This document shows, one piece after another, positions 30,519 to 58,539 of a stretch of 64,000 nt of DNA (the stretch's first letter is position 1; the number at the start of each line of letters is the position of its first letter). Location: contig NW_026862875.1 of NCBI RefSeq assembly GCF_026571515.1, positions 248,001 through 312,000 of the forward strand. Reading direction: 5' to 3'. This DNA is from Ruditapes philippinarum (taxonomy: Eukaryota). The position numbers and the translations under genes are program-made. Below the pieces are notes generated by a model. That model had not been told where the DNA came from and did no database searches. It saw only the letters and a list, made by a program, of their open reading frames with translations.

Positions 30519-30582
30519 ATGTTCAAATTAAGTTTTATTTTCTTGACATTGGGATTATTAACAGTTTCGTTTGCAGCTAAAG
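30519..30582 (+). CDS. Secreted LDLa-mucin-chitin-binding protein A, exon 1 (signal peptide)
   Basis: ATG MFKLSFIFLTLGLLTVSFAAK: basic N-region, hydrophobic core and S-F-A cleavage-type motif. Phase-1 donor G|GTAAAA joins in frame to the exon at 38760. Not in the ORF track. Confidence 0.7.
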
Positions 30583-31020
30583 GTAAAATAGTTTATTTTC
30601 GTTTTCTTGTCCTTATACTTTCTGTAAATAACTCTGTATACTGGTATACATGAAAGTCTGACATCGTTTTCCTATAATTATGAAAACATCTGTTTTATTT
30701 TATGATAAATTTATTTTCATCTCTGGTTTTCATTTAGAATTATATTTGCACATTTTTTGCCATTGTAACTTAATACAATACTAAGACTTAAATGCGGTCA
30801 TTTTCTTTTATTAAGACAACATTACCAATGTGCATTGAGACAAAATTTGGGCAAATAACGCCCAACATTCATTTTGTTATTAAAAAGGTCTCAAGATAAT
30901 AAAATATGCGCTCTTTACTCTAACTTGACCGATACAAGACTTAATAATGTGAGAAACTGAATAAAAGTTCCATACTATGCTCAATCCTTACGTAAAATGT
31001 AGTAATCTCAGAAATTTACT

Positions 31021-33964
31021 CACGGGGGAGGAAGTGTTACACGAAGGATGGAGTTCTTATGATAACTTGTTTGGAGTTCTTATGATAACTGGTACGGAGT
31101 TCCTGGAAAATGTTACGGATTTCTGTGGAAAACTTTTCTATATACTTGGAGAACTTGCCTAAAAAATGGTTATTTTTAACTTTAAATGGGGAGTTTGAGG
31201 TGCTTAATTAAACTTTGATAATTAAGCTTGCCCTACATATTGTATTTTGTTTCAGAAAAAATCTTTTAGTCTATATTTTGTCGCCTTTTTTAAAAAAATC
31301 TGCATGTTTTGAGAAAAATTACCAAATTACTTGCTAATTCGTACATATTGACCTTTTCATTTGTGATCTTCTTCGTTGCTATACTTAATTACCTAATTAT
31401 TATGGAGAGTTGCAAACATAAAGCCCGGGCTAATAAATTTATACCCGAATTTTCAAATGTTACGGAGTTCTTGCGATAACTCAAAATATGTCCTGGAGTT
31501 CTTATGATAACTTTTGTTACTGCCAGTGTGTTTTTGTGCTTAATCACGGCGCGTTTAAGCGTATTTTATTAGACAATAAGTGTGTAAATCATTATGAAGC
31601 ATAGTACGCTTATCATTTGCACAAAAATTTGGTTATATAACGTTGGTTTTGATCGTGTTTTTCAGTTCAAGAGATATTTTTCTTACCTCCGTTTCTTGTG
31701 TTTTTTGTGTTTGTTTTGGTCTTTTTGTGTGTGTGTTTTTTATATTTTATTGGAATGACTGTAAACATACTTGATGTAGAGCATTTACTTACAGGATAAA
31801 AATACGCTTTGAATCATGATTTCGTCATATATACATTATTCCTGGCAGTTTTAGAGAACATTAAGTAACTATGCTATCGGTATGCATGTAAATGGTTTTC
31901 AGCAAAATAGGAGGTAGTATGCACTACCTTTATCTAAATTTAATGAGGTGGGTGTCGTCTTTATGCACGTTTCATTTATGTGCTGATTTGTCATGTGCAC
32001 GTTTTTCATGTACTGCAAATTCACAATAAACTACAAAAAATCGACATATCTTGCCTCGCCCATCACATCGACATATTTTTTCGGGCTGAAATGAACCTAT
32101 GGCTTGATTATATATGCATCACACATATTTAATATGTTCATATACATATCATCTTCGGACAAATGGCAGTATATTGTCAAAAATAAATGGAAAATTCATA
32201 AAAACACCCTACTTTCGGTTTTGCAGCGGCACGGGCTACCTCTCTTCATTTGAATTTTCATATCACAGGTACCCTCTCATTTTTTAACACATAGGTACCC
32301 TCAAAGCACGACATATACTTTTATGTGTTAATCGCTAAGTATGTAATATTTACATATAAGTAAGAAATATTACATACATACTTAACGATTAACGCAAATA
32401 AAAGCATATGTCGTGCTTTGAGGGTACCTATGTGTTCAAAAATGAGAGGGTACCTGTGATATAAAAATTCAAATGAAGAGAGGTAGCCTGTGCCGCTGCA
32501 AAACCGAAAGTAGGGTGTTTTTATGAATTTTCCATTTATTTTTGACAATATACTGCCATTTGTCCGAAGATGATATGTATATGAACATATTAAATATGTG
32601 TGATGCATATATAATCAAGCCATAGGTTCATTTCAGCCCGAAAAAATATGTCGATGTGATGGGCGAGGCAAGACATGTCGATTTTTTGTAGCTTATTGTG
32701 AATTTGCAGTACATGAAAAACGTGCACATGACAAATCAGCACATAAATAAAACATTCTAGTGTTCCGTGGTATACATCTTTTCTACGTGTCATACCTCCT
32801 TTCCTTATTACAATGAAATTTTACTGGATTGTTATCCATCGCTGGTTTGTTTTTAGCAGAGAATGACCTGTGCATGTTCGAAGAGGGTACCGTTTGAGCA
32901 GATTTCGCAAAGAGGGTACAGATATGGATATGAACCGTGATCATTGTCATAGAACTTTATAAGTTTCTATGACAAAAACTGATACCTTTTAGAAATTGAA
33001 ATACCCGTTGAAACATAAAGACGACACCCAACCCACCTCATTAAATTTAGATAAAGGTAGTGCATACTACCTCCTATTTTGCTGAAAACCATTTACATGC
33101 ATACCGATAGCATAGTTACTTAATGTTCTCTAAAACTGCCAGGAATAATGTATATATGACGAAATCATGATTCAAAGCGTATTTTTATCCTGTAAGTAAA
33201 TGCTCTAAATCAAGTATGTTTACAGTCATTCCAATAAAATATAAAAAAACACACACACAAAAAGACCAAAACAAACACAAAAAACACAAGAAACGGAGGT
33301 AAGAAAAATATCTCTTGAACTGAAAAACACGATCAAAACCAACGTTATATAACCAAATTTTTGTGCAAATGATAAGCGTAGTATGCTTCATAATGATTTA
33401 CACACTTATTGTCTAATAAAATACGCTTAAACGCGCCGTGATTAAGCATAAAAACACACTGGCAGTAACAAAAGTTATCATAAGAACTCCAGGACATATT
33501 TTGAGTTATCGCAAGAACTCCGTAACATTTGAAAAATCGGGTATAAATCTATTAGCCCGGGCTTTATGTTTGCAGCTCTCCATAATAATTAGGTAATTAA
33601 GTATAGCAACGAAGAAGATCACAAATGAAAAGGTCAATATGTACGAATTAGCAAGTAATTTGGTAATTTTTCTCAAAACTTGCAGATTTTTTAAAAAAAG
33701 GCGACAAAATATGGACTAAAAGATTTTTTCTTAAACAAAATACAATATGTAGGGCAAGCTTAATTATCAAAGTTTAATTTAGCACCTCAAACTCCCCATT
33801 TAAAGTTAAAAATAACCATTTTTTAGGCGAGTTCTCCAAGTATATAGAAAAGTTTTCCACAGAAATCCGTAACATTTTCCAGGAACTCCGTACCAGTTAT
33901 CATAAGAACTCCAAACAAGTTATCATAAGAACTCCATCCTTCGTGTAACACTTCCTCCCCCGTG
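31021..33964. mobile_element. ~2.9-kb palindromic (foldback) element with CACGGGGG...CCCCCGTG termini
   Basis: 31021-32351 is the reverse complement of 32365-33964, apart from scattered substitutions and a ~260-bp segment (32754-33013) present only in the right arm. 13-nt central loop. Repeated subterminal GGAGTTCTTATGATAACT motifs. No TSD and no transposase ORF. Confidence 0.9.
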
Positions 33965-34871
33965 TATAGGGATGCTGGAATAATTTCTTAGTTAAAAGGG
34001 TTTTAATATTTGATTGCATTTCATGTTTTCTTTGTCTGCGCATAGGCAGGTCTATTTTTTCACGTGTATTTCATGACCGGGTCTGTCTGACTAGAACAGA
34101 CCTGTGCACGTGCAAAAGATAGACCTCATAACGGACTTTCTTTTGTTTAAACAGGTCTATCCGAAAAATATAGACCTATCACAAACAATAGAGGAGGTGT
34201 GTAAATTTACAAAGAGACTGTAGAAAATTTTTAATATCAAATTTGGGCATATAGTATATCTTTCAGCGATTAATAACGACAGGTTTTCATATTTGCTAAC
34301 TGCTTATTAACTTTTAATTCAAGGAGTTTCAATATATTCGTTTTTTTTTTTTTTTTTTCGATTTATGGCATTGCTTGTGACAATCGATGCCCATGATATG
34401 TTTATTGCGTTGTTTTAGTTTGTTCGTTTGATATCTTTTTATTTCAAATCATAATATTTTCCAAATGTTTGAAGATATGTTTTTAAAGTGTATTGAGATA
34501 TCCGGAAAAAACGAACACTCCCGTTGCTAATGTTTCTTATTATAACCTTAGTTGTTAAAAAATGATATGAGTGTAGGACAAATGATGTGGCTTTACAGAG
34601 GCTGTACTGTAATATTAATTATTTTATAGATCAAAACAAATCTTTAAAGGATATAACAGCAATTGTTGCAAGCAGGTATTGTAGGACCTATCTATCTTGA
34701 TTCAATAATGACAGTGATGGCGATACACATTGGTACATGCCTATAGCAATGACTGTTTGGTTGTTAAAGTAACGTTCTGCTCATTTTTTGTTGTCAATTT
34801 AAGCTGAATTCTATCTAGCTTCCATTTACTCAAACCCCTGCTGGGAGTTTTCGCGTCACTAGTAAGAAGGA

Positions 34872-35338
34872 TAACAAGAACGATCAGTGATCACTTGTGT
34901 CGCCAGTTGATAGCCCATTGTTTATTGCGGCGACTGCTTAGCAGGAGACACAAAACTCATAAATAAGCCAAAACGCGTTTTATTCAAGGGCCATACCTCA
35001 GCTAAAATTCATTCAACCGGAAAACTCGTTTAATATGCGCAAGTACTTGAGGTACCAATCAGTCCTGTAAATTGTCATTTAAATTGCATAAGTAGTATCA
35101 GAGAATTAGTACAGGCAAAACTTTGAAATTTAAAATCATTGAACCGTAAGATGCATTCGATATACAAAACTAGACTTGGCACTGATCATTCCTGTAAAGT
35201 TTGTATGAAATTGCACCAGGAGTTTTTAAGGAGTAGTCCGGGCAAGTATTGTGACGGACGGCCAGACAGACGGACAGACAGACGCCTGAGAAGTGATCCC
35301 TAAATGTCGCCACAACTCTGTAGCAGGCGACACAATAA
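34872..35338 (-). mobile_element. Non-autonomous Helentron-type (HINE-like) element
   Basis: AACAAGA end, subterminal inverted repeat TGTGTCGCC/GGCGACACA and a (GACA/GACG)n microsatellite near the other end. Same layout as 42438-44216 and 58637-59965, in reverse orientation. Confidence 0.6.
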
Positions 35339-35344
35339 CAGGGG

Positions 35345-35645
35345 TTTAAAAGTGAGATAAAAGTTTAAAATAGAATAAAGCAAAACATGTGTGTATTTAG
35401 GGTGAGGCTTACAACCTTACTGAGCATTGGTCAGACAGGGGCCAACATCTGGGGGAAAGGCATTCAAATGAAAAATGGTCTTAAGGAAGAATTAGTACTT
35501 GTAGTAGACGGTAGCTGTTGGAATTTGTTTGAAAGCAAGGAAATGGGGATTTCGAGTAGGTCTAACTACTGGGGGAGATCTGGAAAGGGAGGGAGACTAG
35601 CAATATTGCTATATACAAGATTAGCTATTTTGATAGCCATTGACC
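35345..35645 (-). mobile_element. Decayed 3' end of a CR1/L2-group LINE ORF2
   Basis: Minus-strand translation of 35563-35444 gives RPTRNPHFLAFKQIPTATVYYKY*FFLKTIFHLNAFPPDV, matching the TR..H......Y+.SFFP+TI..WN.LP C-terminal motif of these LINEs. Contains an in-frame stop. Confidence 0.65.
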
Positions 35646-36279
35646 AATACTTAATAATGGAAAATGTTTATCATTAGATATTAAAACTGCCTTAAATATA
35701 AAAAGACTGCCACAATAGTTTTATCAATTGTTATTTCCAATATCTTTCGAAGGATATTTACAGAATTTCACATTTTCACCAGTCCTAATTAAACATGTGA
35801 AGAAGAATAGTAAATTGGAAATGATTATGGTATAATGTAATGTAATTTTGCCTCTTACCTGTACACTCACCATTAAGCCTTGGATGAGCATAATGCCACT
35901 TTAACATTTACGTATAACTTACTTATGAAAATTGTGTATCAATATAATTAAATAGATCATGAGCAATTATAAATGGCGTCAAAACTGATAATAATACATG
36001 TATAATAATGTATGGAAAATATTATGAAAAAAATGCAAAAGATTAATACAAATACAGACTTTTTCTGTTTTCTACACATATGTCAGTCGATAACATGACA
36101 TATTTATGGCAAAACGCGCCGTTTAAGATTCATGTTTAAGCTATTTATTTTGTTTGTATTCATTTTTTCACCTTGGTGGAGCAAAATGTTGAAATACGAA
36201 GACATGACATTTGTGCCTTGTTGTACTTTCGTGATTTCAACCTGTAGGATTTTTTGCCTCTTTACACCATTATTATGTA

Positions 36280-37831
36280 ATAGTTACCGTACGAGGAATA
36301 GGTCTGCATAGTATTTACAGACCCGGGTGGCGATTTGAAGACCGAGAGAGCGTAGCGATCGAGGTTTTTAAAAGGCCACCGGGTCTGTAAATACTATGCA
36401 GACCTATTCCGAGTGCGGTAACTATCTTACCTACATGCTCTTTTGTTTTTCTATCCATACATCAGTTTTTAGCTCAGTATTTATCAATATTACTCACAAG
36501 AAACATAATTATTACTTATGTACTTTATCATGTTTAAGAAAGCATTCCAAAGCCAAGCAAAGATACCATCCGCTACGCTCTTGTAATTCATTCGTTCACA
36601 AATCAGGTGTTATTTGAATATTCTCGTGATTTTCGTGGGGTTTCATTAGGTAATGTACTTGTTGAGTTGAGTCACAGAAAATGAAAACAGAACTTGTCGA
36701 GTAGGGAAAGGTAAGATCATTATTTTGATATGTGAATACATAACATATTAATAATATAAACACATACTGAGGAAGATAAAAATGTTTTCTAATCATAAAA
36801 ACGGAACACTTTATCTTTATATATAATCATGGTAAATAGATGATCAGGCTATTTCTTATATACATGTAATTAAAATATACGATTTTTTCAAAGGAAAGTA
36901 CGAGACGGGGTTCTATGAATAAATATTAGTAATACATGTAGTTACACCGTTATGTAAGTTGGGTTTTGTTGTTGTTGTTTTTTATGATGGCTGTTTTTAA
37001 ATGTTCTTAGAATTTCATCCATGTTTGGAAGAATTTTCTTTCCGTGTATTATTAATTAGCATCATCCGTTTTTAGACCGCATGTAAGCACGCGGTCTAGA
37101 ATGGAAGCGCAAGTCATATTCTTGGTACTGGTATACAAAATCCAAATTGTAATGTAAAAATAACTGGGAAAAAAAGGTCTTATACTTAAGATGAACTATA
37201 CTCTCACTGAAAGTAATATTTTGGAAAAAGGAAAGATGCAGAAGTTGACTTTGATTCGATATGCACAAATAATATAATCGTCGTATACATCCTATAATGC
37301 AGAATTGTTAAAATAATGCAGGATTGTGCAAATTCAGACATAGTTGTGGAAATAAATACCGAAAACTAGTATCTTATGAATATATATAGTTCGGCAAATG
37401 TGTTAGGTATACCGAAAAGCAAACTTTAAAGAAAGGCTTAATATGCGTTGTTATACTCATTAATATCGACGAAACACAAAACTTTAACGCCAGAACAGTA
37501 GCCAGTTCGTTTTTCTCACAAATAATCTGGAATATAAGTTATGAGGGTACTTACAGCCGTATACGCTAATTTATTTCGATTAATCTTTGAAATATATATC
37601 GACCCTTTTTCCTATTCAAAGTGGTCATTATCCCCCCCCCCATCCCCCACAATTTAGCGTTATTTTACGGTGAATATTGTGTACTGTAATGCACGAGTTT
37701 CTCGGCTTCACATAGTTTCTATTGTATAGAGAACAATAGAACAATAACCGGTCGGTATCTATTTGCAGACCTGTTAACCGGTCGGTAAGTGATTTACTAG
37801 ACCGCTTTTAACAAAGGAGCCGGTAGGTAAC
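36280..37831 (+). mobile_element. Non-autonomous hairpin-ended DNA element (Crypton-like, second family)
   Basis: 146-nt terminal hairpin at 36280-36425 with a perfect 30-bp stem GGAATAGGTCTGCATAGTATTTACAGACCC and a GAGCGTAGCGA loop. The adjacent TTACCTACATGCTCTTTT is inverted at the far end (AAAGGAGCCGGTAGGTAA, ~37812-37830). Confidence 0.55.
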
Positions 37832-38759
37832 TTTTTTTACCCTGTCACATGCGTACAAAGAAATGAAAGATGCAATACTTCATGTTGTGGGGCAAAAATG
37901 CAACGGCCGAGTAAATGAAAACACGTTATAGTCACTATTCGTTGTGTAAGATTTTTTTTAACTTTCTCCCCGCCATGTCTGAAACGCAAACTCAACAAAT
38001 TTAAGGCGAAATCAAGATACATGAAATTTGTCGTTTTGTCGCGCCATAAATCTGTCGTTTAATCGTGTTTTCATGATAATTAATAAATAGGACAATTAGC
38101 AGGAAAGCACACTTATACAACGATGAATTTATAAATCAACCATCTTACATCGAGTAACATATATATGAATAGGAAAGAAAATAGAAAAGCGAAAAACACA
38201 CAAAGCGCTAGTATTTTGTGATAACAATAGAAAATAATTCTTGGAAATCTGCTTAAAGATGTCCAGTCTAAGATAGATGTATCAATACTTAGTCCGTTCT
38301 AACATGTATAAACATCTGATATTTGTGTTATAGATAACATAGTAATATAGATAATATATTAATAAATACACTTTTATGCAAGAAAGTGACGTTGTAGGGT
38401 CTTGCAAGAAATTCTTTAGAAGCAGCTGTAAAAAGTTGCTCGTACTTCACTTGAGTGTTGGTATATTTTTCTGGTCTTTCTGGATAAAAAAAAATCCAGC
38501 ACTTTTAAGTGTTGAAAATTGAGTACCACTCACAAGCTGATGTTAGAGGACATGAGAGATGTTGCACTTTTTCATTATCCTTCATGTACAGACTACGATC
38601 AAACCAAGTCTGCAAAGTTCATGTAATTTTATTGTGATTAATGCTTCCGATGAATAACATTTTGTACAGATTTTTATATTTGACATTTCTAAGTTGTAAG
38701 GATTTAATGTACTAATATATAACAATATAATGATGCACACCGTTTCTTGATATTTCAAG

Positions 38760-38882
38760 GTACTCAGACATGTGGTGCAAACTTTTGGCAATGTGCTGAT
38801 GGATCTTGTATATTCCTGGTGGGTCGTTGCGACAACTTTCCTGACTGTGAAGACGAATCAGACGAAAAGGGATGTGCTTCAG
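38760..38882 (+). CDS. Protein A, exon 2 (LDL-receptor class A module 1)
   Basis: (G)TQTCGANFWQCADGSCIFLVGRCDNFPDCEDESDEKGCAS: six Cys plus the Ca-binding D-x3-DCxDxSDE motif. Phase 1-1 exon, 123 nt. Confidence 0.9.
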
Positions 38883-41808: not shown

Positions 41809-42066
41809 CACCGTAGGAAACAGTACAAGATGGAGGATTATTTGCGGGAAGACAGGTAGGTGATCGTTTTTTTGAGCCAATATAGAGATGATACTGCGTA
41901 GCAGAGTCTGAGAAAATATATACCTAGAGGACGGATCCAATTCGTTACAAGCAAAGCACAAAACATCTTTAAGAAACTAAACTACTTGTAGAGTGGACGG
42001 AAACAAAAGTCACCTACCTGTTTTCCAAATTCTATACTCTAAAGCGCGATACCGTTCCCTACGGTG
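41809..42066. mobile_element. 258-bp MITE with CAC...GTG termini, bipartite TIRs and a near-perfect 5-bp TSD (Transib/RAG-like architecture)
   Basis: Left end CACCGTAGGAAACAGTA-N21-GGAAGACAGGTAGGTGA; right end (reverse complement) CACCGTAGGGAACGGTA-N23-GGAAAACAGGTAGGTGA; flanks AATAC / AATGC. Confidence 0.65.
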
Positions 42067-42270
42067 AATGCCCTTACAATTAGTATCATATTTTTATGCC
42101 GGACGAAAGCGTTTATTATTCGCTAAGATTTATGAATTCTAACAATTTCCAATTTAAAACATTATAAATGATAAGAAAATAGATCGGCTTCAACACAGTT
42201 TCTATACTTGGATTTTGATCCATACAATGCTAATATTATTGCTAATGTTAAATGTATTGATATATTTCAG

Positions 42271-42390
42271 TTGTGTGTAAAGAGGGTCAGCGCCCATGCT
42301 CCTCAGGAGAATGTATAAATGCCAACTTTTTCTGTGATGGGATAATTAACTGTAGAGATGCCGGTGATGAGCTAGCGGCTGACTGCCCAG
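42271..42390 (+). CDS. Protein A, exon 3 (LDL-receptor class A module 2)
   Basis: (V)VCKEGQRPCSSGECINANFFCDGIINCRDAGDELAADCP. tttcAG acceptor, GTATGA donor, phase 1-1, 120 nt. Confidence 0.9.
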
Positions 42391-42437
42391 GTATGACGCA
42401 ATTGTTGATGGGCATATACTCATAATTTAATTCCATT

Positions 42438-44216
42438 TTTAGCTCGACTATTCGAAGAATATGAGAGCTATTGTAGTCGCCCCGGCGTCGGCGTCGGCGT
42501 CAGCGTCCGCGTCGGCGTCTGCGTTGGTTAAAGTTTTTTGTAAAGTCAAATATCTCAATTATTACTTGAGATATTCAATTGAAACTTACAATACTTATTT
42601 ATAGTAACAAGGTACATCAGATTGACAAGTTTGATAACTCTGCCTACAATATTGACAGAATTATGCCCCTTTTTAACTTAGAAATTTTGGTTAAAGTTTT
42701 TTGTAAAGTCAAATATCTCAATTATTGCTTGAGATATTCAATTAAACTTACAATACTTATTTATAGTAACAAGGTACATCAGATTGACAAGTTGGATAAC
42801 TCTGCCTACAATATTGACAGAATTATGCCCCTTTTTAACTTAGAAATTTTGGTTAAAGTTTTTTGTAAAGTCAAATATCTCAATTATTGCTTGAGATATT
42901 CAATTGAAACTTTACAATACTTATTTATAGTAACAAGGTACATCAGATAGACAAGTTGGATAACTCTGCCTACAATATTGACAGAATTATGCCCCTTTTT
43001 AACTTAGAAATTTTGGTTAAAGTTTTTTGTAAAGTCAAATATCTCAATTATTGCTTGAGATATTCAATTGAAACTTACAATACTTATTTATTGTAACAAG
43101 GTACATCAGATTGACAAGTGGGATAACTCTGCCTACAATATTTACAGAATTATGCCCCTTTTTAACTTAGAAATTTTGGTTAAAGTTTTTTGTAAAGTCA
43201 AATATCTCAATTATTGCTTGAGATATTCAATTTAAACTTACAATACTTATTTAAAGTAACAAGGTACATCAGATTGACAAGTGGGATAACTCTGCCTACA
43301 ATATTGACAGAATTATGCTCCTTTGGAACTTTTTTGTTTAAAGTTTTTTGTAAAGTCAAATATCTCAATTATTGCTTGAGATATTCAATTGAAATTTAAA
43401 AATACTTTTTTGTTGTAACAATGTACATCAGTGTGCAAAAATTGCATAACTCTGCCTGCAATATTTGCAGAATTATTTGCCCCTTTGAAACTTAGTAATT
43501 TTGGTTAAAGGTTAAAGGTATTCAAAGATATTTACTTGAAACTTTACACATGCACTTAGGGTCATAATTGGAGGGTCATAATTGTATGTCACTGACCAAG
43601 TTCCATAACTCTATCTTGCATTAAGGCTGATTCATATCCCCTTTTCTACTTAGTCTCTTGGTTAATGTTTACATGCAAGTTTTACATATCTCAATGACTA
43701 TTAAAGATATTTATTTAAAACTTCACATATGCATTTAGGGTTATAATTGTAGGTCACTGACAAAGATCCATAATTCTATCTTGCATTTAGGCTGATTTTT
43801 CTCCCCTTTTTCAACTTAGAAATTCATGGTAAAGTTTTGTTTGTAAGCTGTTATCTCAATAACTACTGAAGGGTTTGTCACTTTGTGCCTTTTTTGGGAC
43901 AATTTTATGCATTCATAATAATAAAGCAGTGATTTCTTGATAAAACATCTTAATAACAAGCCTTTGTACCTTGTCTGTCAAATTTATTTTTCATAGGTAA
44001 TTAGTATTATTATATTCAATAAAACACCCTTGTGACATTACCTTCCGAATAGTCAAGCCAATACTGTATAATTAGACTCTCTCTAAGGCCTATAACATGA
44101 ATTTATAACAAAAAATTAGCCCTTTTGTGAACTTAAAAAATTTAACATTATCAAGGCTCTTTTACTATCAAGCACTTAGAATAGTCGAGCGTGCTGTCCT
44201 TCCGACAGCTCTTGTT
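42438..44216 (+). mobile_element. Helentron-type non-autonomous element (HINE-like) with internal ~163-bp satellite array
   Basis: T-rich ends; subterminal IR GCTCGACTATTC / GAATAGTCGAGC (44179-44190); (GGCGTC)n microsatellite; units start at 42526, 42689, 42851, 43015, 43178, ~43336 and 43503, then diverge; 3' stem-loop GCTGTC-CTTCC-GACAGC followed by TCTTGTT. Confidence 0.8.
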
Positions 44217-45847: not shown

Positions 45848-46303
45848 GAGAAACCACAACAAAATCAAATGCAAACACTTCCACGGAGGATTCACTACCT
45901 AGCCCTATCAAGAGTTTGACATGGACACCACGTCAAGTTCAAGACACGACTATCCAGCCTTCAACGTCAAAACCACAGAAGCAAAGAGAACTAGACTGGG
46001 GACGCATATTTGCGGCTGAGTTGGTAAACAAACCGGCCACAATGTCTGAACCTTCTCTGCCGGATATAATAGTTCCTAATATTCCCCCAAAAACTCATAT
46101 TTCGGTTCAACCAATCAAAAGCTTCGTTTCAACAACACTTAAGTACAATATTCCTGATTGGGCAATGTCAAAAGTTAAGGAGACCACCACGCCCCTATAT
46201 CAGCCACGTGTTTCTACAATACCATACTGGTTTTATTGGTATAACACAACCTATCAACCAACAACGTCACGAACCCCTTGTGTAGAAGTGGATGACCGTT
46301 TTG
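45848..46303 (+). CDS. Protein A, exon 4 (Thr/Pro/Ser mucin-like linker)
   Basis: tttacAG acceptor, GETTTKSNANTST...TPCVEVDDRF, donor G|GTAAGT. Phase 1-1, 456 nt, inside ORF 45796..46425. Confidence 0.85.
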
Positions 46304-47191: not shown

Positions 47192-47682
47192 AATTTTGCC
47201 GCAAGCGTTATCGTGGTTATTACCGCCACCCAAACGACTGCAAGCAGTATATTGTATGTGAATGGGGATTTATGCATATATGTACATGTCCAGAGTTAAC
47301 TCACTGGGATCTTCGAGCTCTAACGTGCGTTTGGGAGAACACTTCACCGTGCATAACAGGAACTTATGATAAACTGATAATAGCTGACCAAATTACAATG
47401 CCAATACCCCCGATTATGGCACCGTCACCATCAACATCACTTCCTACAACGACGCAGATATCAACGACAACATCAGATTTGTCTTCTTCATTGCCAAATA
47501 TTGTACCACCGCTTGTTAGACTGCGCGCCCTACCTGCAACACCGGCTTGGCTGAAAGAACTCACTGCAAAATCTTTTTCTTACCAAAATGAGCCGCAAAC
47601 ACCACGTTATCAGTCGCTCTTGACAAGATTCTTCAAAGCAATGCCACATAGTACAGCCAATGAGAACATAAGACTAAGTTAA
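47192..47682 (+). CDS. Protein A, exon 5 (CBM14/peritrophin-A chitin-binding domain plus Thr/Pro tail, stop)
   Basis: (E)FCRKRYRGYYRHPNDCKQYIVCEWGFMHICTCPELTHWDLRALTCVWENTSPC has C-x13-C-x5-C-x9-C-x12-C-x7-C spacing. Full CDS 64+123+120+456+491 = 1254 nt, 417 aa. Confidence 0.9.
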
Positions 47683-47922
47683 TTAGACTTATTTAAAGAT
47701 TATATGTACATATAAGTTACAGTTTATTTAAAGCTTACAAAGTTGACTTGGCTAGTGTTGTTTCTCCTCCACTTATACGAGGAGATTATTATTGTACAGC
47801 GGGATGTTCATGAAAATGTTCAACTAGGGACATTGCGTTCAGAGATTGATTAACATTACAGACATACGTTATCTACAATGATATTAATGTTATGGAATGT
47901 TTATTTTGAAATGGAAAGATTC

Positions 47923-47944
47923 AATAAACTGCATTTTCAATAAA
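47923..47944 (+). terminator. Duplicated AATAAA polyadenylation signal of protein A gene
   Basis: Tandem (TCAATAAACTGCATTT)x2 about 240 nt after the stop codon, followed by T-rich sequence. Confidence 0.5.
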
Positions 47945-50193
47945 CTGCATTTTTTCATAATATTGTTGATAGCAGCATGCCTCCAGAATAATGCTAATTT
48001 TCATGAAAGTTTTTTAATGAATTGCAAATTAAAATATTGTGAAGTGAACAAATGGCACTTATGACTTTGAATATGAAACTACCCATAGGGATAAAAATAT
48101 TTGCATTTAAGAAGACTTGCTAAACATTTTTCTTTCATACAAGTATTCTTTTTCAAAATTTAAATCGCAAACACATTTATAAAGATATATAGCTTTATAC
48201 ACCTACAGAAGTGGCAAAATTATTTCATATTTTCTATTATAGTTGTGTTTTATAGCTCGTGACTCGACAATATTCAAACAGACCTTATACACATTTCGTC
48301 ATTAATTCGAATTGTAGCAGTTGCCTCCCTTAGACGCAAAGTTGGTGTCAACAATGTTATTATGTCATTAAAAAATACGCAGGCCTCAAGGTTATGAATC
48401 TTTGCTAAAGTTACGTCTCAAATCTAAGGATTATCAATGATAAGTGTACATTCTATGTTAATTCTTTACTTACTAAGTACTGGGGATTTGAGTTAGATCT
48501 TAGACAATTACTGTTTAGCCTCATACGCAGACTTACAATTATCTCTGAACACATGCAACAATATCTGAACTAGGAAACTCTTAGTATCCGACCCGAGTTG
48601 CAAACAAAGTGTGCGCTTGATTATAGTGAAAGTCTGTATACTTATTTAGGTAAAATATTTGTATATTTGGTATCGAAATTTGCGGAAATGTATTGGCTAC
48701 ACTGTGGTTTATATTTAATTGAAATTTGATTTTTAACAAAACTTCGATAACAACTGAGGGATGAAAAGAAAAGTTGCAGAATTGTGCTTTTTATCAATTC
48801 GGTTTTTTCCTTTGGATACTTGATTTTTATTCGAACATCGTTCAAACTCAATTCCATAAAACGTTCTATTAACGTCCATTCAGTCTCAAACATTTTACTT
48901 GATTCATAAGCGAGATGGAAGCAATAGATGATTTTGAACAAGATAAAACGCGTAAAGCTTATATTTTCACCCTATCGTTATGTACACGAAACAAAAATCT
49001 GATATTAATCAAATTTCAATACAAAGTAAACCACTGTGTGGTCAATACATTTAAATTTCTCACATTTGCCTATATTTTGCAGAATTCTCAAGAAATCATA
49101 GTTTTATTTTTCAACTGATTTAATTATTTTACAAGTACTGGAGAGTTCGCTTTCAGAAAACTCAAATATGTCAGTTTCTTCCTTGCGAATGGCCAGTGAG
49201 ATTTCCCGGTTATTAAATATGGGTTTGCTGTTGGGCAAGCGGGCGGTTGAAAACATTTTTCTGTTCGCAACTTCTAATTCATTCTCAAGCGCTTTTCACA
49301 AAACTTTTAAAGAAGCATCATCATCAATATTGTCATCAATATTGTCGGTGTTTGGCAAATATTTTGGCAGAATTATGGCTCTTTGATTTTTTACATATAT
49401 AATACATAGGGAAATCTTCTTTGAATTTAGAATCTACTCAAGATATTATAATATTTTGGAATTTTATGCATATCTTTGTTATACATCAAATGATATCACT
49501 GAACAATTCCATAACACTGACCAACATTTTGACAGGAATTTGGCATTTTTCAGGCTAAAAGTTTAAGTTATAGAGGTAAATCACTGTCACTGATAGCTAG
49601 GGTTTTTGATTTCTGACTTCTTCTACATTAATACAATATATAAATGCAGAATAAATGATGTATGTAAATAGTAAATAGTAAGCAAGTAAACGTACAAAGT
49701 AAACAAAACGACAGAGGTCCACATAAGATACCACTATAATTTAATAAATATATTAGTATTATATATAGTGTTAATTTGTTCTTAAGTTTATTGTTCGTAA
49801 TAATATGCATCAAATTAGATACAGTTAACATTTCAAATCTGTAGAAACATAAAACATACAAATTAATACTCATGTATATATTATATATGTTAAAAATCAT
49901 AATTCGACAAAATATGCTCGAATTGCAAAATGCTGGCAATATGCAATAGGGCACTTGATGACGAAGCTTCTGTGAAACATGAAACACTAAACACCACTTT
50001 TCGTCGCATTGCGGTGTTTCTTGTCCAGTTCTTCGCTGTGAATGTCACAGGAAGTCTAGGTCAGAATAGACAGTCTACGGCCAAAAAAGGCAATTGCTTC
50101 GAGAATCATAGAATCCCGGAGTATACGTAATGTACCGACGCACGTAATACGTTTCTCTTCAGAAAACATACTCATAACTGTTGAAATTTACAG

Positions 50194-50653
50194 GCCCCGT
50201 GTTCACTAAGATTAATGAATCAAGAGGATCAAGGTCAGGATCAAATTTAAAGAAAACCAACTATTCTCTATTGTTTTATCCTCATAGATTAAGTATTTCA
50301 TATTAACCTGACAAAATTGGACTTGAAATAGCACATTTTAGAAAATTTAGATTATATTAATTGCTATATTACAACATATGGGCATTTCACTGTTGATCGA
50401 AATATTGATCCCGATTCTAAAATTGATTTTTATTTTGATCCGATTATTTTTACTTTGTTTTGTAATTCGTCTATTTTATCCAAAAATATGATGTTTTTTT
50501 GTTGTTTTTGTTTTTTAGCCATTGTTTTACATTTTGTAACATTTAATTCTAGCAAACTAGCAAAATACAATAAATTTTGGGTTTATTAAACACTGAAAAC
50601 AAAATCAGGATCATTTGTTTTGGATTCTGATCTTTTCTTAGTGAACACGGGAC
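50194..50653. mobile_element. 460-bp MITE, PIF/Harbinger-like
   Basis: TIR GCCCCGTGTTCACTAAGA / TCTTAGTGAACACGGGAC flanked by a 3-bp direct repeat CAG on both sides; internal GGATCA/TGATCC repeats. Confidence 0.7.
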
Positions 50654-52828
50654 CAGAGGACGTTCTAAAAACTGTGTAGGCATATATTTCACAATATCAT
50701 TTGCAAACAGCGAAAAAAAGGGAAAGAAGAAAAAGAAAATACATTAATACATATATATTATCAGGCTGATTTTTTTCTTTATTTATGTATTATACTAGTA
50801 TTAATATAGATATAACTGTAATGTGACAAGCAACAAACGTCTTCATAAAGTGTGATATTGGATCATCCGCATGATGCCCTATCTAATAGTGATGAATAGG
50901 TATAATTGAAGTATATAACATATATTGTCATAGTCTTGTAGCAGCCATTACGATAACATGTTTTTACGAAAATAAAACTGTCAATAAAACTTAACACGGG
51001 TTACCAAAACTGAATGTTCTGTCTTTGAAGATGGACAGTAACAATTTTGATGATATGTATAAAATATTTTTCTATGCATATTTCGAATAATCATCTTATT
51101 GTGAAGGTTCTCTTTACGGAAGCATAAATAGACCACCACTTTACGATATATTTCATGAAAACATTCATGATAACTATTTTAAGTTTTCACGAAACAAGGT
51201 ATGATTTTCACGAAAGAAAGACAAATATCATATTTAACAAGAAAGTTTGCATGTTAGCGCATTAAAAACGGACACATTTTCGGGAAAATAATTCTTTTTA
51301 CGTGTTTAGTTAATAATTTGTTTCATGAAATATTCCTAATCATCTGATTTCACGAAAATCTATTATTTCCCCGAAATTGTTTCATAAACACTCTATTCGA
51401 AAGTACAATTAACTTAACAACGATAACTTCACATAATGCGTGATAAATAACTAGCTTCTGTGGTCTACTTTATTGTCCTGTATTATGATATATTAAGTAA
51501 GAAACCTCTGTTAAAATTGTCACGAAAGTTTGCATGAAAATTTATTAAGTTATGGCGTATTTATGACTTCGTATTGTAAAATTTCTGGTACGTACATATA
51601 ACTGAATTGCTAGTTGAATGTGGAACTCATTCCGAAATGGCCGCTTTGTGAGCCGCGAGGTAGTTCAAAATGAATGGCTACCGATTTCTATCCGCCTGGC
51701 GCCTGGCATAGTGGTAGGAGTTGGGAGGTACATGGTATGCAAGCAAAAGGTGTCTCATAAGCCAGAAATGGCTGGCCCTTTCAGTAGGGGTGACACTATA
51801 ATAAACAAGATTTTTTTTAATGCGTTTATTTAAGGTCGCCGCCGGAAAGCCCATAAGGGCGACCGTACACTCAAGTCGGGCCATCCTAGAGCGTCCCGCC
51901 GAGATTTTTTCATAAACAAGACCTTTACCTTTTACCTTTTATAACTACTGACAATCGCAACTTTTCGGTCTTTTTCCGCCATACTTCGGTAAAGAAGTAT
52001 GGGTAATCGGAGAGGTGTTCCGAATACGACACTAGCGGGATAAAATCATTAAGTTTTCTTGATTATCATCATATCAGAATATAATTACAAAAAATGGTCA
52101 AATGTAAATATCATATATTTATTTGTACATAACTATTCTTTGTAAAAATACATCTTACTTTTTTGCAAAATTCGAAACAAACTACACAAATTTGAAAGCA
52201 AAATAATTGGTCACATAATAACTGGGTTTTAAAGACTTGAAACTTTTACATTTATCTGGTACAGAAAACTATAGAATGTGAAGTCTGAACAAACCAAAAA
52301 TTATCTTGTTTTCTAACAGACAACAGAACCCTCTGTTGGTGTTTCGATGATGCCATATCATTGCAATTTTGTTAAAAAATAACATATACTTATTTTGGTT
52401 CGACATATCACTTGTAGAAATACTTTTCCTTTTAAAATGTACAACACACAATGGAATAATTAAATATTTCCCCAGGTGACATATGCACGAATTTCCTCAT
52501 TACAAACTTTTTAATACTAGCGACACTGACTCAAAGGGATTATGCAAAGACACGTGTACAATAAAATGAAAAATAACCCCTTTAGTATAAGGACAATCAA
52601 ATCTGGATGATGTTTCCATTTTTTTCACTATATGTATTTGTAAAGTCACACAATCAGAAGCACTAAACTGTTTATCACGTGATTAAATTTTCACCAACTG
52701 ACACGTGATCAAATTATCTTCAAGTGACAAGAAATCCACCGTTGGCAAATGGAAAAAAAACTGTTTAACATGTCCTTTACACGTGACAAGATAATCACAA
52801 AGTGGCGCGTGGTAAAACTATTCAAAAT

Positions 52829-52995
52829 TCATTTACACGTGACAAGATGATCCCAGTTACATACTTTTATATTATCGTCAAACATAGTGCTGGATGGGCA
52901 AGCACAGTTATGTAAAATTCCCCATATACAAACGTAAAAAGAGCGACAATCTGCTGGGTTTTTATAATGGCCGGAATTTCTTGACTGGCAAAATC
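52829..52995 (-). CDS. LDLa-mucin-chitin-binding protein B, last exon (CBM14/peritrophin-A, stop)
   Basis: gtttcAG acceptor, (G)FCQSRNSGHYKNPADCRSFYVCIWGILHNCACPSSTMFDDNIKVCNWDHLVTCK*. Cys spacing is identical to protein A. Confidence 0.9.
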
Positions 52996-53699
52996 CTGAA
53001 ACAAGGGAAGTAAGTTGAAATATTTTGAACATTTGGAAAAAGTAGTTTGTAATTTGGATTAGAAGTCAATGTATTGAAATAAGTATTTTCAGAAATTTTA
53101 TTGCTGTTGCATGTTTTTGATAATTAACATTCACACAGTGTTGTAAATGAGAAATGAAATAATTATTCATAAAAATCATTTATATGATGTTAGAAATCAG
53201 CAATAATATGTTTGTTTTACTGATTTTTACGCCAGTTTTGATCATATCCCGGCGCTCAATACATCTAACAGCCTTTTCTGGATAACTAACCAGTAAATTC
53301 CAATTTATCTGATAGGGATCGGCTGCTTATCTCACGTGATTTCTGAATTAGCGGCAAGAGACAAATGCGCATTAGAGTCTATGTCCCAGATCCTTTCGCC
53401 TCGCCCGAAGATCGAAAAGTGACCACGAGATTAATATGATTGTTCATATAAAAAAATTTTAATGAAAAGAATTATTGCACGCTATGATATAAACATGTCA
53501 AGGTTGAAGCTTACCATGGTTAAAGCATGACCAAAAATAACAAAAACCTATAAAATGTCAGAATTCTTGCATCAGTTAAGTGAAAGGTTGAAGTCATTTC
53601 ACATAAGAAATAAACACAAAGAAAAAGTAGCAAAGATTTCTATGATCCACAAGACAGGCATTTACAAAAAAAGCGATTATAGTAGAAAAGAACTAGTAC

Positions 53700-56600
53700 C
53701 TGTATTATCTTGCATTTGGTAGCACTGGTCAAGACTTGACACCGCCGTAGGGGTAGGCGTTTGTTGTGTGACGAAGACGGTAGGCGCAGCTGTTGGTTGA
53801 ACTTGTTCCCACCAGTTTGATATCATGTCTGAGGGAAGGACCCGACTTTGGCCCTGGTTCCAGTAGAAGTTTGTTGATGGTTGAGTTTGGAGACTACCGA
53901 TCGAAGTGGGAACAGCAACTGTTACCGGTGGGAGTGTTGTTGGTTGGACATCTCCTGTTTTCCAAAATGTTTGAATTATACTTGTAACAGGTAATCGAGG
54001 TGTTATTGTAGTTTGGCTCTGAATCATGGGAGTAGCAGGGCTTGGTTTAGATTCATCATAAACTGTCTTTACATCTTGTTTGTTTTGTAAAGCAATTACT
54101 GGGGGTTGTAAAGTACCAAGAGGCAACACAGTCCGACTTGTTGTTGTATCAAAGCCTTTTGAAACTAGGTTATACTTTGTTGAAGGTTTAATAAGCAATG
54201 GCTCTGTTACTTTTTCAGGCTGTGTGGCGATACTAAAATTTCCAGGTTTTTGTAAACCTCCCTTTGTGTTAAATATTTTAAATATTTCTAAAGGTCCTTG
54301 ACTATTCGTTTTAACTTTTGATGAAGGGTTTTCCGTTCTCAATATGAAAGGTTTAGGTGTCGAAGTACTAAATGATGCAATATATGTTTTTGTTGAAGGT
54401 TTCGCCGTTTTAATTTTGTATGGTTTTACCGTTGAAGGGTTCCATTGTGGAGTTTGTGTTTTTGGTGTAGTTTCTTGCGTTTTAACATTTCCAGCTTTCG
54501 GTTTAACTGTTGTATGGATATTATAAGATATAAAAGCCTTTGTTGTAGGTTTATCATCTGATTCTACAGCAAGTTTGCCATTAGGATCTACAATTGAATC
54601 TGTTGGTACTCTTGACCTAACTTCGCGCGTCGGTCGAATTTGTGGAGTTGAAGGCATTATTCTACCAAAACTACTTGAAGGAAGTAGAAAAGGTGTAGTG
54701 AATGTGCCCACCCCAAAATTCTCCATGTGTTGATTTACTGCAGTATTTTGTACGTGTATATCAGGACTTAGGGGGTCGTATATGTTATTGAGTATGTCTT
54801 GGTTTGGGTTGAATGGTGACACAGTGGCTACATGGGTGACTGGCATACCTCCGGCTCCAAACATTGCATCCCAGGAAAATGCACTTGTTGTTGGATTAAA
54901 CCAAGAATTGTCAATCAAGGATGGTTGAGTTGTGTAACCAAACAAGTTGTCTAACGAGAACGGAGACAATGTGGTTTGCTGCCACCATGGAGAAATAGTA
55001 GCAGTATTACCGGGAATATGTGGAACAGTTGCAGGCTGTACAACATTAGACTGTTTTACTGGCTGCGGAATAACAGGAGGCTTATTTACAGAAGATGGCG
55101 TTGTGATTTCAGGTTTTCTAACCTGAGGTAGATTAAACAGAGGCTGTATACTTTGATGTCGAACTTTCGGAGTTTGTAAATGTTTAGATTCTAAATCCTG
55201 TGATCGAATATTTTGAGATGGTACATTTTGAGATTGTAAAATTTGTGGATAGTGCTCGATATGTGTCCTCGTTGTTGGTTGAATGGAAAAAATTGGTGAC
55301 TTTGTTGTTGGTTGCATACGAAAGCCTTCTGTCCTTTTTGTCGTTGGTGGTTGCACAGCAAATGTGGGACTTTTTGTTGCTTGTATACCAAAGCCAGAAC
55401 TTTCCGTTTTAGTATTGTGTACCATATTTGTTCCTGCTCGAGCCAGATTTAATTCTTTCATTACTAGTTTTGATCGTGCATTTGATGAGTCTAATGCTTT
55501 CCTAACAAGAGCGTTCAACTTTCCTAACATTATTCTTACTTCATTTTCGGGATTAATTTGTAAGGATGAGGTTGCCACTCTATCTTTTAATGTTCCCATC
55601 ACTTTACTTTGCTTCTTAACAATGGAAACAGCAATACTATCGTCTCTATTTACTGCCGGTGTATTGTTACTTTGAATATCTTTATTATTTGAGTTATTAT
55701 ATGTTTCAAAGCCAAGTATACTGGTTTCACGCAACGTGTAACCAGAATCTGATTTGTCTGGTAGAGATTCCTTTGTTTCAATTACATCATAATTCAATCT
55801 TTCTTTTTCTTTCTCTTTCATTTTTGTCTCTAGACTAGGATAAATAAAATCGGAACTCGTTAAATTTCCAGATAGCAGAGACACATTCGAATTTGAGTAA
55901 TTTGCAAGCAACTTTCCAACAAGCATATTGACCTCAGAAATATCCGATTTTAAAGTAGGTTCCGATACATTTGAACTTATATCATTGCCGTTATCATTCT
56001 TTAAAACGTTCTTTACAAATTCTGACGTTTTTACATATGTTTGACCGTTATCATCCGCATTTTCATATTTAGGTCCCTGCAGTCCCCTGAATTTATTCCA
56101 ATTAAGTAATGAATCGTCATTTGTAAAGCTCACATTCATATTATCGCTCAGCAGTTCCCTTTCCCGAGCAGTTGATATCACTTTCTTTGGAAGAGGAGCA
56201 GGTGTCTCTGATTCGGTAACTGTCTTTGCATATTCCGTTGAAATTGTTACACCAAAATCTGCGGTAGCCAAAAACAAGGGTAGATCTGTTGTAACCGACA
56301 TAATGTCAGAACTATTTGGTGATGTCATCTTTTTATCTAAGTGTTTATTTGATTGATTAAAATTTGCATATATTGTTGAATTTGTTTCTAATGGCAAATT
56401 TGGTGTTGTCGTCGTAGATGTTTTGATTTTTTGCGTTGACACTTCAGTTATATTTGTAACATTTGAATGTACGTTTTCTCTTAAGGTTTCAGTTTCAACA
56501 TTTACGTTAACACTTATTTCACCACTTCCTGTTACAAAACTTGAATTATTTGTTTCGTTTCCAGTAATGGTGTAATGCAATGGTGTCATATCTTCTACAA

Positions 56601-57587
56601 ATGATACATTTTCAGAATTATTTCTATCAGAAGTAGTTTTGTGATATGCTGCCGAAGTAGTTGTATCGGAGTCATTTAAAGTGGATATTCGCGGTGCAAT
56701 CGGAGTAACAATTTCTTGTTGGTTTAGCTTGGTAACAATTTGTTGGTGAGGTGTTGTAAAAAACACAGTTTGTTTTACAGTTCCTGGAGTAACTGTGTCC
56801 GTAGTGCTAGTTAGTTCATCGTTTGTTGTCATCTCTTCAGAGGTTGCTGGCTCTGTGGTCATTGTAGTTGTTTGATCTCTCATTTCAGTAGTTGTTTTGT
56901 TTTGCATTAGTGTTGTTATCTTACCTTTACTTTTTGTTGCTATTTCGTGTAATGTTGTAGTAGTAATTATGCCTTTATTTTCGCTCTTTGCTGCTTCCAT
57001 TATTGCACTTGTAGCTTGCTTTAAACTCTCAGTTGTGGCTTCTTCTTTTCCATTTATAGTATCCTGTGCATTAGAGATTGATGTTGTTTGGTCTACAAAT
57101 CCAGTTGTTGAAGTTTGATAAGGAATATTTGTTGAAGGGTGGTCTTTAGTCATCGGTGATTCTGTTATTGGTGGAACGGCTGTGCGTCGCCATGGTGGCG
57201 TTTGAGAAGGCTTATATACAGGTGTCGTTGTTTTGTACACCTTTACCCATTGTTTCGTAGGAGGAGTAATGGTATACACCTCCCCTCTTTCCTCGGCTCT
57301 CAGTTTATTTAGAAGCATCTTCCAAATTGGCATTTCTGTGGTTGTTGTTGTTGGCTTTGTAGTGATTCCAAGGCTTTCTTTTAATTTTATCAAAAGTTGC
57401 AACCAAGCAGGAGTTTCTGTGGTTGTGATCGGGGAGGAGGTAACCGGTTCGAAACAGTTACGATCTGGGAAACGGTAACTAAGTTCCACCTTTTCACGTC
57501 TAAGTTGTGCCTTTAAAACCGCTAGTATTGTTGGAACGAAAACGGGTGGCTTTTCATATGACAGTAATCTTTTATCTGTTTCGTTGC
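53700..57587 (-). CDS. Protein B, 3888-nt mucin-like exon
   Basis: ctttcAG acceptor (exon starts 57587) and donor G|GTACTA, phase 1-1. Uninterrupted Thr/Pro/Ser-rich frame (ORF 53677..57489, whose GTG start is not the true start); many N-x-S/T sequons. Confidence 0.9.
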
Positions 57588-57645
57588 CTGAAAGTGAAAA
57601 ACAAGATTATAACAATATGTATAATGTAAGTATGGCTATTTAAAG

Positions 57646-57803
57646 TTTGTTTGTTTGTTTGTTACGTCACACCAACACAGTATAGGTCATACAACGTTCC
57701 AGCTTACCGGCGGAGGAGGACTTCAGGTGCCCTTCCGTGCATTATTTCAGGTACTAACGGGCAACTGGGTAGAACCACCGACGTTCCGTAAGCTTGGTGG
57801 ATG
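57646..57803 (-). mobile_element. SINE 3' fragment with (AAAC)n tail
   Basis: Minus strand reads GCTTACGGAACGTCGGTGGTTCTACCCAG...GAAATAATGCACGGAAGGGCACCTG...GTGTTGGTGTGACGTAAC(AAAC)n. A related copy lies at 2250-2420. Confidence 0.6.
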
Positions 57804-58434
57804 TCTTTTAATAAGTAATAATGCGTTATTATATAGAAGATATAGTAAGTTCCAAACGTGTTTGACCGGATGTATTGTGAATTAGATTTTCGGCAAAATA
57901 TATTGAAATATATTACAAAATAAAAAATAATCAACAATCAACTGTGTAATGTTTTCTGATACATATGGACTCAAATTGCATGGTATCGATTCATTTATGT
58001 GGATATCAAGATATAAATTGTAAACTGTACGGGTACACAAAATGATCATATTAGTTTGTTTTTTCATTTATCCAAAACAAAATATATGCATATCAAAGCT
58101 GTAATACTATTCTACGGTAATAAATCATTTTATTTTAGAATGTAACGAAATATACAACTGTACATGTAGATGATATAAGAAATAAATTTTTAGTTGAAAA
58201 TTAATGAACAAACTCGTAGTGATAAGAGTTATGCATATGATGAAAGCTTATATCATTGAACAACTATACGTCGTTATATGTTCCATGTAAAGGTTGTTAA
58301 CTTTTTTATATATTCATCAATTTCAATAGCAATTTTCAAAGGTGGAAAAACCAAGCATTTACACATTTGTTATATACACATATCAATCCCTTCTTCTAGA
58401 TCTAAGCAACATGAAAGTATAAAACAATACTTAC

Positions 58435-58539
58435 TACACCCAAGTTCGTCAGACAAATCATAACATGTTGGTTTACCATCACATCTTACACAGTCAATTG
58501 GACAAAGCTCATTTTGGCAACAGTGGTATTCAGATGACA
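58435..58539 (-). CDS. Protein B, atypical LDLa exon (upstream exons not found in window)
   Basis: ttttatttAG acceptor, xSSEYHCCQNELCPIDCVRCDGKPTCYDLSDELGC(S), donor GTAAGT. Phase 1-1, 105 nt. CDG..C.D.SDE..C is the LDLa C-terminal signature. Joins in frame to 57587. Confidence 0.85.

Follow-up and report, generated by a model that had tools for sequence, protein, structure and literature searches.

A 64,000-nucleotide stretch of Ruditapes philippinarum (assembly GCF_026571515.1, contig NW_026862875.1, positions 248,001-312,000 of the forward strand; hereafter the window) contains two convergent genes, here named gene A (+) and gene B (-), which join LDLa-type heads to a CBM14 (ChtBD2) domain across Thr/Ser/Pro-rich linkers of very different length. 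The two constitute a real gene pair, and they are best explained, with a probability of about 0.6 as judged from sequence, as encoding secreted structural proteins without an enzymatic role, which arose by an ancient duplication and belong to a chitin-containing extracellular matrix of heterodont clams. A calcium-binding chitin-matrix role had been proposed in a first-pass annotation of the same DNA; the matrix role is still the most likely function, whereas its calcium part is weakened by the loss of one ligand in gene B and the non-acidic character of both proteins.

Splicing of the exons at AG/GT sites joined five exons of gene A into a single open frame of 417 amino acids (signal peptide, two LDLa modules, linker, CBM14, and a 109-residue tail) and three exons of gene B within the window into 1385 open codons (LDLa-like head, long exon, and CBM14), the latter corresponding to the final 1385 residues of RefSeq XP_060560603.1 ('mucin-2-like', 1405 amino acids), with 100% identity over the long exon. 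The 1296-codon frame of this exon would arise by chance with a probability of about 1e-38 given its own base composition, and the other two sense frames contain 85 and 103 stops. For gene A, the Mercenaria orthologue matched all five exons in order, the signal exon weakly (E 0.09), and neither protein search (by sequence or by profile) returned a Ruditapes protein. These splices bear out much of the first-pass annotation, as the stops converge 5147 nucleotides apart (about 5.1 kb had been stated), all six introns inside the window are in phase 1, the last intron of both genes lies two codons ahead of the first canonical CBM14 Cys, and the linkers measure 152 and 1296 codons. Its statement that both genes have the same domain order does not hold, because gene A carries two LDLa modules and the tail after CBM14, whereas gene B has a single head and nothing beyond CBM14. 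Likewise, secretion had been proposed for both proteins, and gene A indeed has its own signal exon, but the hydrophobic leader of gene B (the first 19 residues of XP_060560603.1) is encoded outside the window, so that its secretion rests on the RefSeq and Mactra models. In addition, AATAAA signals between the converging stops at 47923/47939 (+) for gene A and at 52123 (-) for gene B indicate that the 3' ends need not overlap. No additional LDLa or CBM14 exon was detected in the window when profiles of the fetched proteins were compared with 2921 six-frame segments.

Orthologues of gene A were identified in Mercenaria (XP_045212464.1) and Mactra (KAL4239288.1), and those of gene B in Mercenaria (XP_053381072.1), Mactra antiquata (KAL4239287.1), and Dreissena (XP_052268298.1, partial), together with one further protein (P0010). 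Searching with a 75-residue piece of the gene B head gave five hits at E ≤0.001 (these four orthologues and Ruditapes) among 1.84 billion representatives. The gene A profile search gave at least five matches among 8000 candidates scored, and both domains were present in two, the Mercenaria and Mactra orthologues, among the matches listed. Taxonomic records of three of the species placed each of them in Neoheterodontei. Moreover, the Mactra orthologues of B and A carry consecutive locus tags (ACF0H5_000104 and ACF0H5_000105, respectively), both listing the 66.6-Mb longest contig, and both Mercenaria orthologues list a contig of 120,499,105 nucleotides, supporting the view that the A-B adjacency has been kept in two clam families, Veneridae and Mactridae, with the orientation known from Ruditapes alone. 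Pfam scans revealed no enzyme domain in any of the seven orthologue models or in the window exons, in agreement with the earlier statement that a catalytic domain is absent. Several database models of gene B look incomplete (P0008, P0010, P0002, and P0009): two stop at the intron that precedes CBM14, the Mercenaria model is cut short inside the head, and the Dreissena model lacks both the head and CBM14. Truncation at these places makes the family easy to miss, and its members bear automatic names such as mucin-2-like, mucin-17-like, serine-rich adhesin-like, and hypothetical.

The relationship between the two genes is clearest at the CBM14 end. Both domains exceed the PF01607 cut-off of 22.1 bits (37.5 bits in gene A and 45.5 bits in gene B) and have the Cys spacing 13-5-9-12-7, as the first-pass annotation had noted; the identity is genuine but generic, because human CHIT1 aligns without gaps over 52 positions and the spacing falls within the published ChtBD2 consensus CX11-30CX5-6CX9-24CX12-17CX6-12C (PMC7379184), so the six-Cys spacing says little on kinship. 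Both domains also carry an extra Cys pair, one member ten residues before Cys1 in the linker exon (codon 46279 in gene A exon 4 and codon 53724 in the gene B long exon) and the other two residues before Cys4, split by the shared intron with one Cys on each side. The resulting pattern, C-x9-C-x13-C-x5-C-x7-C-x-C-x12-C-x7-C, was found in all five CBM14-bearing sequences among the eight sequences examined, and the upstream Cys was also present in two gene B models ending at the intron before CBM14, whereas CxC occurred in none of six PDB CBM14 domains (four proteins) among the alignments listed. Since this two-Cys addition is split across the same intron in both genes, the end of the linker exon appears to have been inherited together with the CBM14 exon, and the unit formed by the two is, on this sequence evidence, probably paralogous between A and B. 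Paralogy had been proposed earlier, and the extra Cys pair, present in 5/5 full domains, now provides its best support, which the earlier annotation lacked. From the paired occurrence of the added Cys residues, a fourth disulfide in CBM14 is also probable.

Furthermore, the CBM14s of A and B have an equal ungapped length and a common C-x-W-G hairpin. The conserved Trp of this hairpin, which follows Cys3 in all five complete domains (47194-47352, +; 52835-52993, -) and is the second conserved Trp, could be a second sugar-stacking site. The cut CBM14 regions of A and B aligned at 99% probability, as any two CBM14s might, and comparison of the whole-protein profiles gave a probability of 3.7%, which is not significant, partly because the gene B CBM14 columns are under-represented (two of five rows carry the domain). 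AlphaFold2 on a two-sequence gene A alignment gave an unusable model (mean predicted local distance difference test score 34.7, predicted template modelling score 0.17).

With regard to chitin binding, the equivalents of CHIT1 Pro451 and Trp465 were kept in 4/4 database CBM14s and in both window exons; together with Leu454, these are the three high-impact residues of CHIT1 (PMC5459812). The combined A and B CBM14 profile found its best PDB match in the CHIT1 chitin-binding domain (E 4.2e-8). The gene A CBM14 alone found its best match in EHEP (E 2.7e-4), a protein of the sea hare gut that binds tannins and not chitin (PMC10619976), and none of the three EHEP domains, as aligned, has the terminal Trp that A and B retain.

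At the opposite end, both LDLa modules of gene A have six Cys and exceed the PF00057 cut-off of 24.1 bits, whereas the LDLa-like head of gene B reaches 20.5 bits. An LDLa had been assigned to both genes, and this stands for gene A, which has two, while the gene B copy is degenerate: it has seven Cys, with the canonical Cys1 gone and two Cys added, and the Asp before Cys5, an acidic ligand position, is replaced by Thr in Ruditapes and Mactra (2/2 complete models). An eighth conserved Cys (57456) lies early in the next exon, and Mactra KAL4239287.1 has the same pattern. The closest PDB matches of this head are LDLR modules (E 3e-4), and its sequence marks it as LDLa-derived but remodelled. With the acidic calcium-ligand positions taken, as we assume, from LDLR LA5, LDLa-1 of gene A has 4/4 in 3/3 species, and LDLa-2 has 3/4, the remaining position being Asn in Ruditapes and His in both orthologues. 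An LDLa module holds one buried structural calcium. Considering that the gene B head lost one ligand and neither protein is acidic (Asp+Glu 8-11%, isoelectric point 5.0-8.6), calcium is more likely structural than mineral-forming; judging from the residues kept, it would most likely stabilise LDLa-1 of gene A and be weakened in LDLa-2 and gene B. The 'calcium-binding head' of the first-pass annotation is thus retained for LDLa-1 and not for gene B. The gene A modules also have no Trp two residues before Cys4, a position with a ligand-binding role in LDLR LA5, and docking of these heads onto basic motifs by LDLa-lysine contacts was set aside because this LA5-type Trp is missing. As a side observation, the membrane-anchored Mercenaria protein XP_053396515.1 (P0006) has two LDLa pairs flanking a Thr-rich stalk, and its first LDLa is the nearest non-orthologous match to gene A LDLa-1 in a small set, making it a possible relative of the gene A head.

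Between the two ends, the linkers of A and B could not be aligned, as had been seen by eye: in 12/12 A-B pairs, 21-97 of 100 shuffles scored as high. Homology of the Trp-rich linker ends was also dropped as a candidate, since no alignment was obtained for the final 60 linker residues of the two genes. The gene B long exon has no tandem array, only a 15-nucleotide, 1.9-copy repeat. In a comparison that left out the Dreissena row, 293 of the 1405 residues of gene B (domains included) lay in blocks that share 50% identity or more with three other B sequences, and the mean identity of the spacer was 24%. One such block (residues 56-156), composed of a basic segment, the eighth Cys, and two PxW(L/K)xxL motifs between Thr runs, was found in five proteins (four clams and P0010), and a basic block in the gene A tail was about 60% identical in Mactra (E 8e-13). 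The related motif PxW(L/K/E/R)x1-2L was present in 8/8 sequences, in the gene A tail and twice in most gene B heads; its count was reached by 0-51 of 2000 shuffles, the motif having been defined after inspection.

Taken as parts of a chitin-containing matrix, these features may be arranged into the following mechanism. CBM14 would bind chitin via its terminal Trp and a Pro (the Trp465 and Pro451 equivalents), with the extra Cys pair as a fourth disulfide stapling the linker end to the domain. The Thr/Ser/Pro-rich, largely disordered spacers would be glycosylated and would hydrate or space the matrix at two lengths, while the conserved Trp/Leu islands and the LDLa heads may provide protein-protein contacts that network the chitin-bound chains. 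Calcium would serve the LDLa fold in gene A without nucleating mineral, and the neighbourhood of A and B could stem from local duplication with inversion, so that co-assembly is not required. Such a matrix may lie in mantle-made shell or periostracum, which is slightly more likely than a gut lining (gastric shield, style sac) or other cuticles, the last two being about equally likely. Shell proteomes of molluscs and brachiopods often contain ChtBD2 proteins (PMC6641155, PMC13425148), which are common in tubes as well (PMC8476170), and a chitinous composition is reported for the gastric shield of bivalves (PMC4457423).

Several results weigh against this interpretation. The CHIT1 Leu454 equivalent is Thr in both genes, and the CBM14 fold also occurs in two proteins without chitin binding, EHEP and Der p 23 (PMC10619976), so the earlier premise that CBM14 binds chitin is not general. 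Concerning the common origin, the non-Cys identity of the gene A and B CBM14s is 26-31%, the gene B head scores 60-63 against gene A LDLa-1 and up to 70 against an unrelated Mercenaria LDLa, and the PDB domains against which the extra Cys pair was judged are few and include none from a bivalve. In the accessible portion of the Mercenaria extrapallial fluid and haemolymph proteome, moreover, none of five peritrophin rows and none of four LDLa rows showed both domains or an annotation match (PMC8902148 supplement 1), and the accessible Mercenaria transcript tables gave no row with both domains (PMC9781830 supplement). Both negatives are weak because these tables use other gene ids, some cells are cut, and shell was not sampled.

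Other explanations were weighed on the same evidence. That A and B form an obligate two-component system, co-expressed and binding each other to build one matrix with short and long spacers, is unlikely: adjacency in Ruditapes and Mactra, the overlapping lineage ranges of A and B, and the PxW(L/K/E/R)x1-2L motif of the gene A tail and gene B head would all fit, but there is no evidence beyond adjacency and this short motif, the linkers do not align, and the gene A modules have no LA5-type Trp. Tail-to-tail genes have no common promoter and local duplicates remain adjacent without selection, which also counts against such a system. A more elaborate version would be a long shot, namely a heterodont-clam invention that co-assembles on chitin, in which a disulfide-stapled 8-Cys CBM14 would anchor each chain, the glycosylated spacers would stick to one another through the shared PxW(L/K)xxL helices and the aromatic islands, and the remodelled, LDLa-derived gene B head (seven Cys and one in the next exon, with a weakened calcium site) would be a new cross-linking domain. 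In that case, the short and the long spacer would define two mesh sizes, whether the matrix belongs to shell, periostracum, or gastric shield.

A role away from chitin, in which A and B would be secreted proteins of mucus or immunity that use the CBM14 fold for another ligand such as microbial glycans or polyphenols, as EHEP does, is likewise unlikely; it can draw on the EHEP match of the gene A CBM14 and the Thr at the Leu454 position, but the A and B profile matches CHIT1 best and the terminal Trp separates both genes from EHEP. There is little likelihood that the genes are not true paralogues but unrelated neighbours put together from phase-1 modules through exon shuffling. Extracellular modules commonly have phase-1 flanks, convincing alignment is confined to the CBM14 module (with the under-representation of gene B CBM14 columns bearing on the whole-profile result), and gene A LDLa-1 is nearest, after its orthologues, to a membrane-anchored protein; these points are opposed by the two-Cys addition across the same intron, the common C-x-W-G hairpin, the ungapped length, and the adjacency. 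Least probable is that the proteins are biomineralisation tethers whose LDLa heads concentrate calcium on chitin and nucleate shell aragonite. The complete set of acidic positions in gene A LDLa-1 and the frequency of ChtBD2 proteins in shell proteomes agree with this idea, while the single buried structural calcium of LDLa, the lost ligand of the gene B head (2/2 complete models), the Asn or His in LDLa-2, and the non-acidic composition disagree with it. In addition, within the accessible shell and biomineralisation literature, LDLa and ChtBD2 appeared together in one paper, in different proteins. The preferred reading of A and B thus remains that of duplicated chitin-matrix proteins.

The positions of the features of both genes are collected in Table 1.

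Table 1. Features of genes A and B, in window coordinates
Feature	Position	Strand	Remarks
Gene A exon 1: ATG and predicted hydrophobic signal peptide, 21 codons, phase-1 donor	30519..30582	+	N-termini of the Mercenaria and Mactra orthologues are similar
Gene A exon 2: LDLa-1, 6 Cys, acidic calcium-ligand positions D, D, D, E	38760..38882	+	PF00057 38.6 bits
Gene A exon 3: LDLa-2, 6 Cys, second acidic ligand Asn	42271..42390	+	PF00057 32.3 bits
Gene A exon 4: Thr/Ser/Pro-rich linker, 152 codons, T+S+P 37%	45848..46303	+	
Gene A exon 5: CBM14, then 109-residue tail, stop	47192..47682	+	PF01607 37.5 bits
Gene A CBM14	47197-47352	+	extra Cys at 47281 (CxC)
Gene A tail basic motif block, includes PxWLxxL	about 47515-47643	+	
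Intergenic region between converging stops	47683..52828	none	
Gene B last exon: CBM14, extra Cys 52906 (CxC), terminal Trp 52855, stop	52829..52995	-	PF01607 45.5 bits
Gene B long exon: 1296 codons, T+S+P 32%, 21 N-glycosylation sequons	53700..57587	-	identical to XP_060560603.1
Gene B conserved N-terminal block of long exon, residues 56-156	57283..57587	-	
Gene B conserved aromatic islands inside spacer, residues 915-998	54757..55008	-	
Gene B conserved double-Trp island ahead of CBM14, residues 1302-1324	53779..53847	-	
Gene B LDLa-like exon: 35 codons, 7 Cys	58435..58539	-	same pattern in Mactra KAL4239287.1

The window as a whole is AT-rich animal DNA and gave no Rfam match. Besides the exons of A and B, it contains a paired-class homeobox gene on the minus strand (13948-14505, 18302-18484, and probably 21514-21936), with best PDB matches to ALX4 and aristaless. 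This gene, presumably Uncx/unc-4 from the motif after the homeodomain rather than from any search, stands head-to-head with gene A, the start codons being about 8.6 kb apart provided that its first exon is the one at 21.5-21.9 kb. The first intron of gene A holds a 2.9-kb foldback element (31021-33964) with 951-nucleotide arms that are 98% complementary, an inner near-perfect palindrome of 785 nucleotides (31969-32753), and no long open reading frame, which is probably a young non-autonomous DNA transposon. Tandem repeats comprise a satellite of 163-nucleotide units (6.1 copies, 42524-43510) in the intron just after the gene A LDLa-2 exon, a satellite of 145-nucleotide units (5.4 copies, 97% matches, 58739-59515) in the intron just upstream of the gene B LDLa-like exon, and an array of about 4-6 copies of a 128-nucleotide unit at 1-743. 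Between genes A and B, two stop-free frames of about 100 codons at 48642-49386 are possibly a decayed mobile element, and four stop-free frames from the intergenic region had no Pfam match above cut-off.

Compared with known systems, A and B bear a partial likeness to several groups of proteins. The gene B label 'mucin-2-like' suggests a gel-forming mucin, and gel-forming mucins have VWD domains and tandem Pro/Thr/Ser repeats; this identity was rejected, as Pfam scans found no VWD and the short repeat noted above was the only one. Chitin deacetylase was rejected as well, with no polysaccharide deacetylase domain in the window exons or orthologue models (Pfam). Chitin deacetylases have CBM14 before LDLa, the reverse of the order in A and B, and A and B differ further in the missing deacetylase domain and the long spacer between the modules. 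The likeness is that insect group I and II chitin deacetylases, composed of ChtBD2, LDLa, and a catalytic domain, combine CBM14 and LDLa in one secreted protein (PMC6480692). Genes A and B and their orthologues have no VWA or LamG domain (Pfam), in which they differ from the VWA/LamG-ChtBD2 matrix proteins, which we take to be those called 'Pif-like'. The latter, known from shells and worm tubes, resemble A and B in joining ChtBD2 to an adhesion module in a proposed chitin scaffold (PMC8476170). Arthropod CPAP1 proteins likewise carry a single ChtBD2 on a long non-enzymatic chain (110-1902 amino acids in Bombyx), but have six Cys and are defined by homology and cuticle expression in insects, with no LDLa noted in the accessible part of that study (PMC7379184). 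Mucin-like peritrophins (insect peritrophic matrix proteins, C. elegans CEJ-1 and B0280.5, and a mucin-2-like ChtBD2-LamG protein from the shell of Perna viridis, PMC6641155) share secreted CBM14 and Thr/Ser/Pro-rich regions in chitin matrices; they often have several CBM14s and no LDLa in the descriptions available, whereas A and B have one 8-Cys CBM14, an LDLa head, and aromatic islands.

The first-pass annotation had recognised no named counterpart of the architecture, but a non-enzymatic precedent for LDLa with CBM14 exists in C. elegans LRPC-1 (M03E7.4), which is listed as a secreted 'LRP10-like chitin binder' carrying ChtBD2, with a defective pharyngeal cuticle in the mutant (PMC9629831), and also as a peritrophin-A or chitin-binding protein (PMC1635065, PMC5603424). 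LRPC-1 is alike in being secreted, carrying ChtBD2/CBM14, being LDL-receptor-like by name, and being described as a linker and not an enzyme; the accessible part of the report describes no long spacer or gene pair for it (PMC9629831). Gene A and its orthologues are likewise secreted, with LDLa and ChtBD2 and no enzyme domain, as far as the LRPC-1 features can be taken from its name and description rather than from a domain map. No nematode protein was among the matches of the gene A and gene B protein searches. In the Atlas, nematode and arthropod LDLa/CBM14 clusters appeared as leads under 0.9 only, among them an LDLa cluster from nematodes that bears the name chitin-binding type-2 protein (370 amino acids, score 0.86).

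Heterodont clam organic matrices are far less studied than oyster and mussel ones. Against this background, the pair supplies two concrete lineage-restricted matrix candidates hidden under automatic names, and an 8-Cys CBM14 variant with a putative extra disulfide spanning an intron. Searches by architecture, accession, or locus tag gave no description of this clam family in the accessible literature, which did not cover most subscription papers, including older clam shell proteomes. The pair extends a known design to bivalves and by itself opens no long-standing question, and it would matter more if A and B co-assemble. By analogy, A and B may work like LRPC-1 and the mucin-like peritrophins, without membership in either family being claimed; the clam family appears undescribed, but worms and insects already provide examples of its general design.

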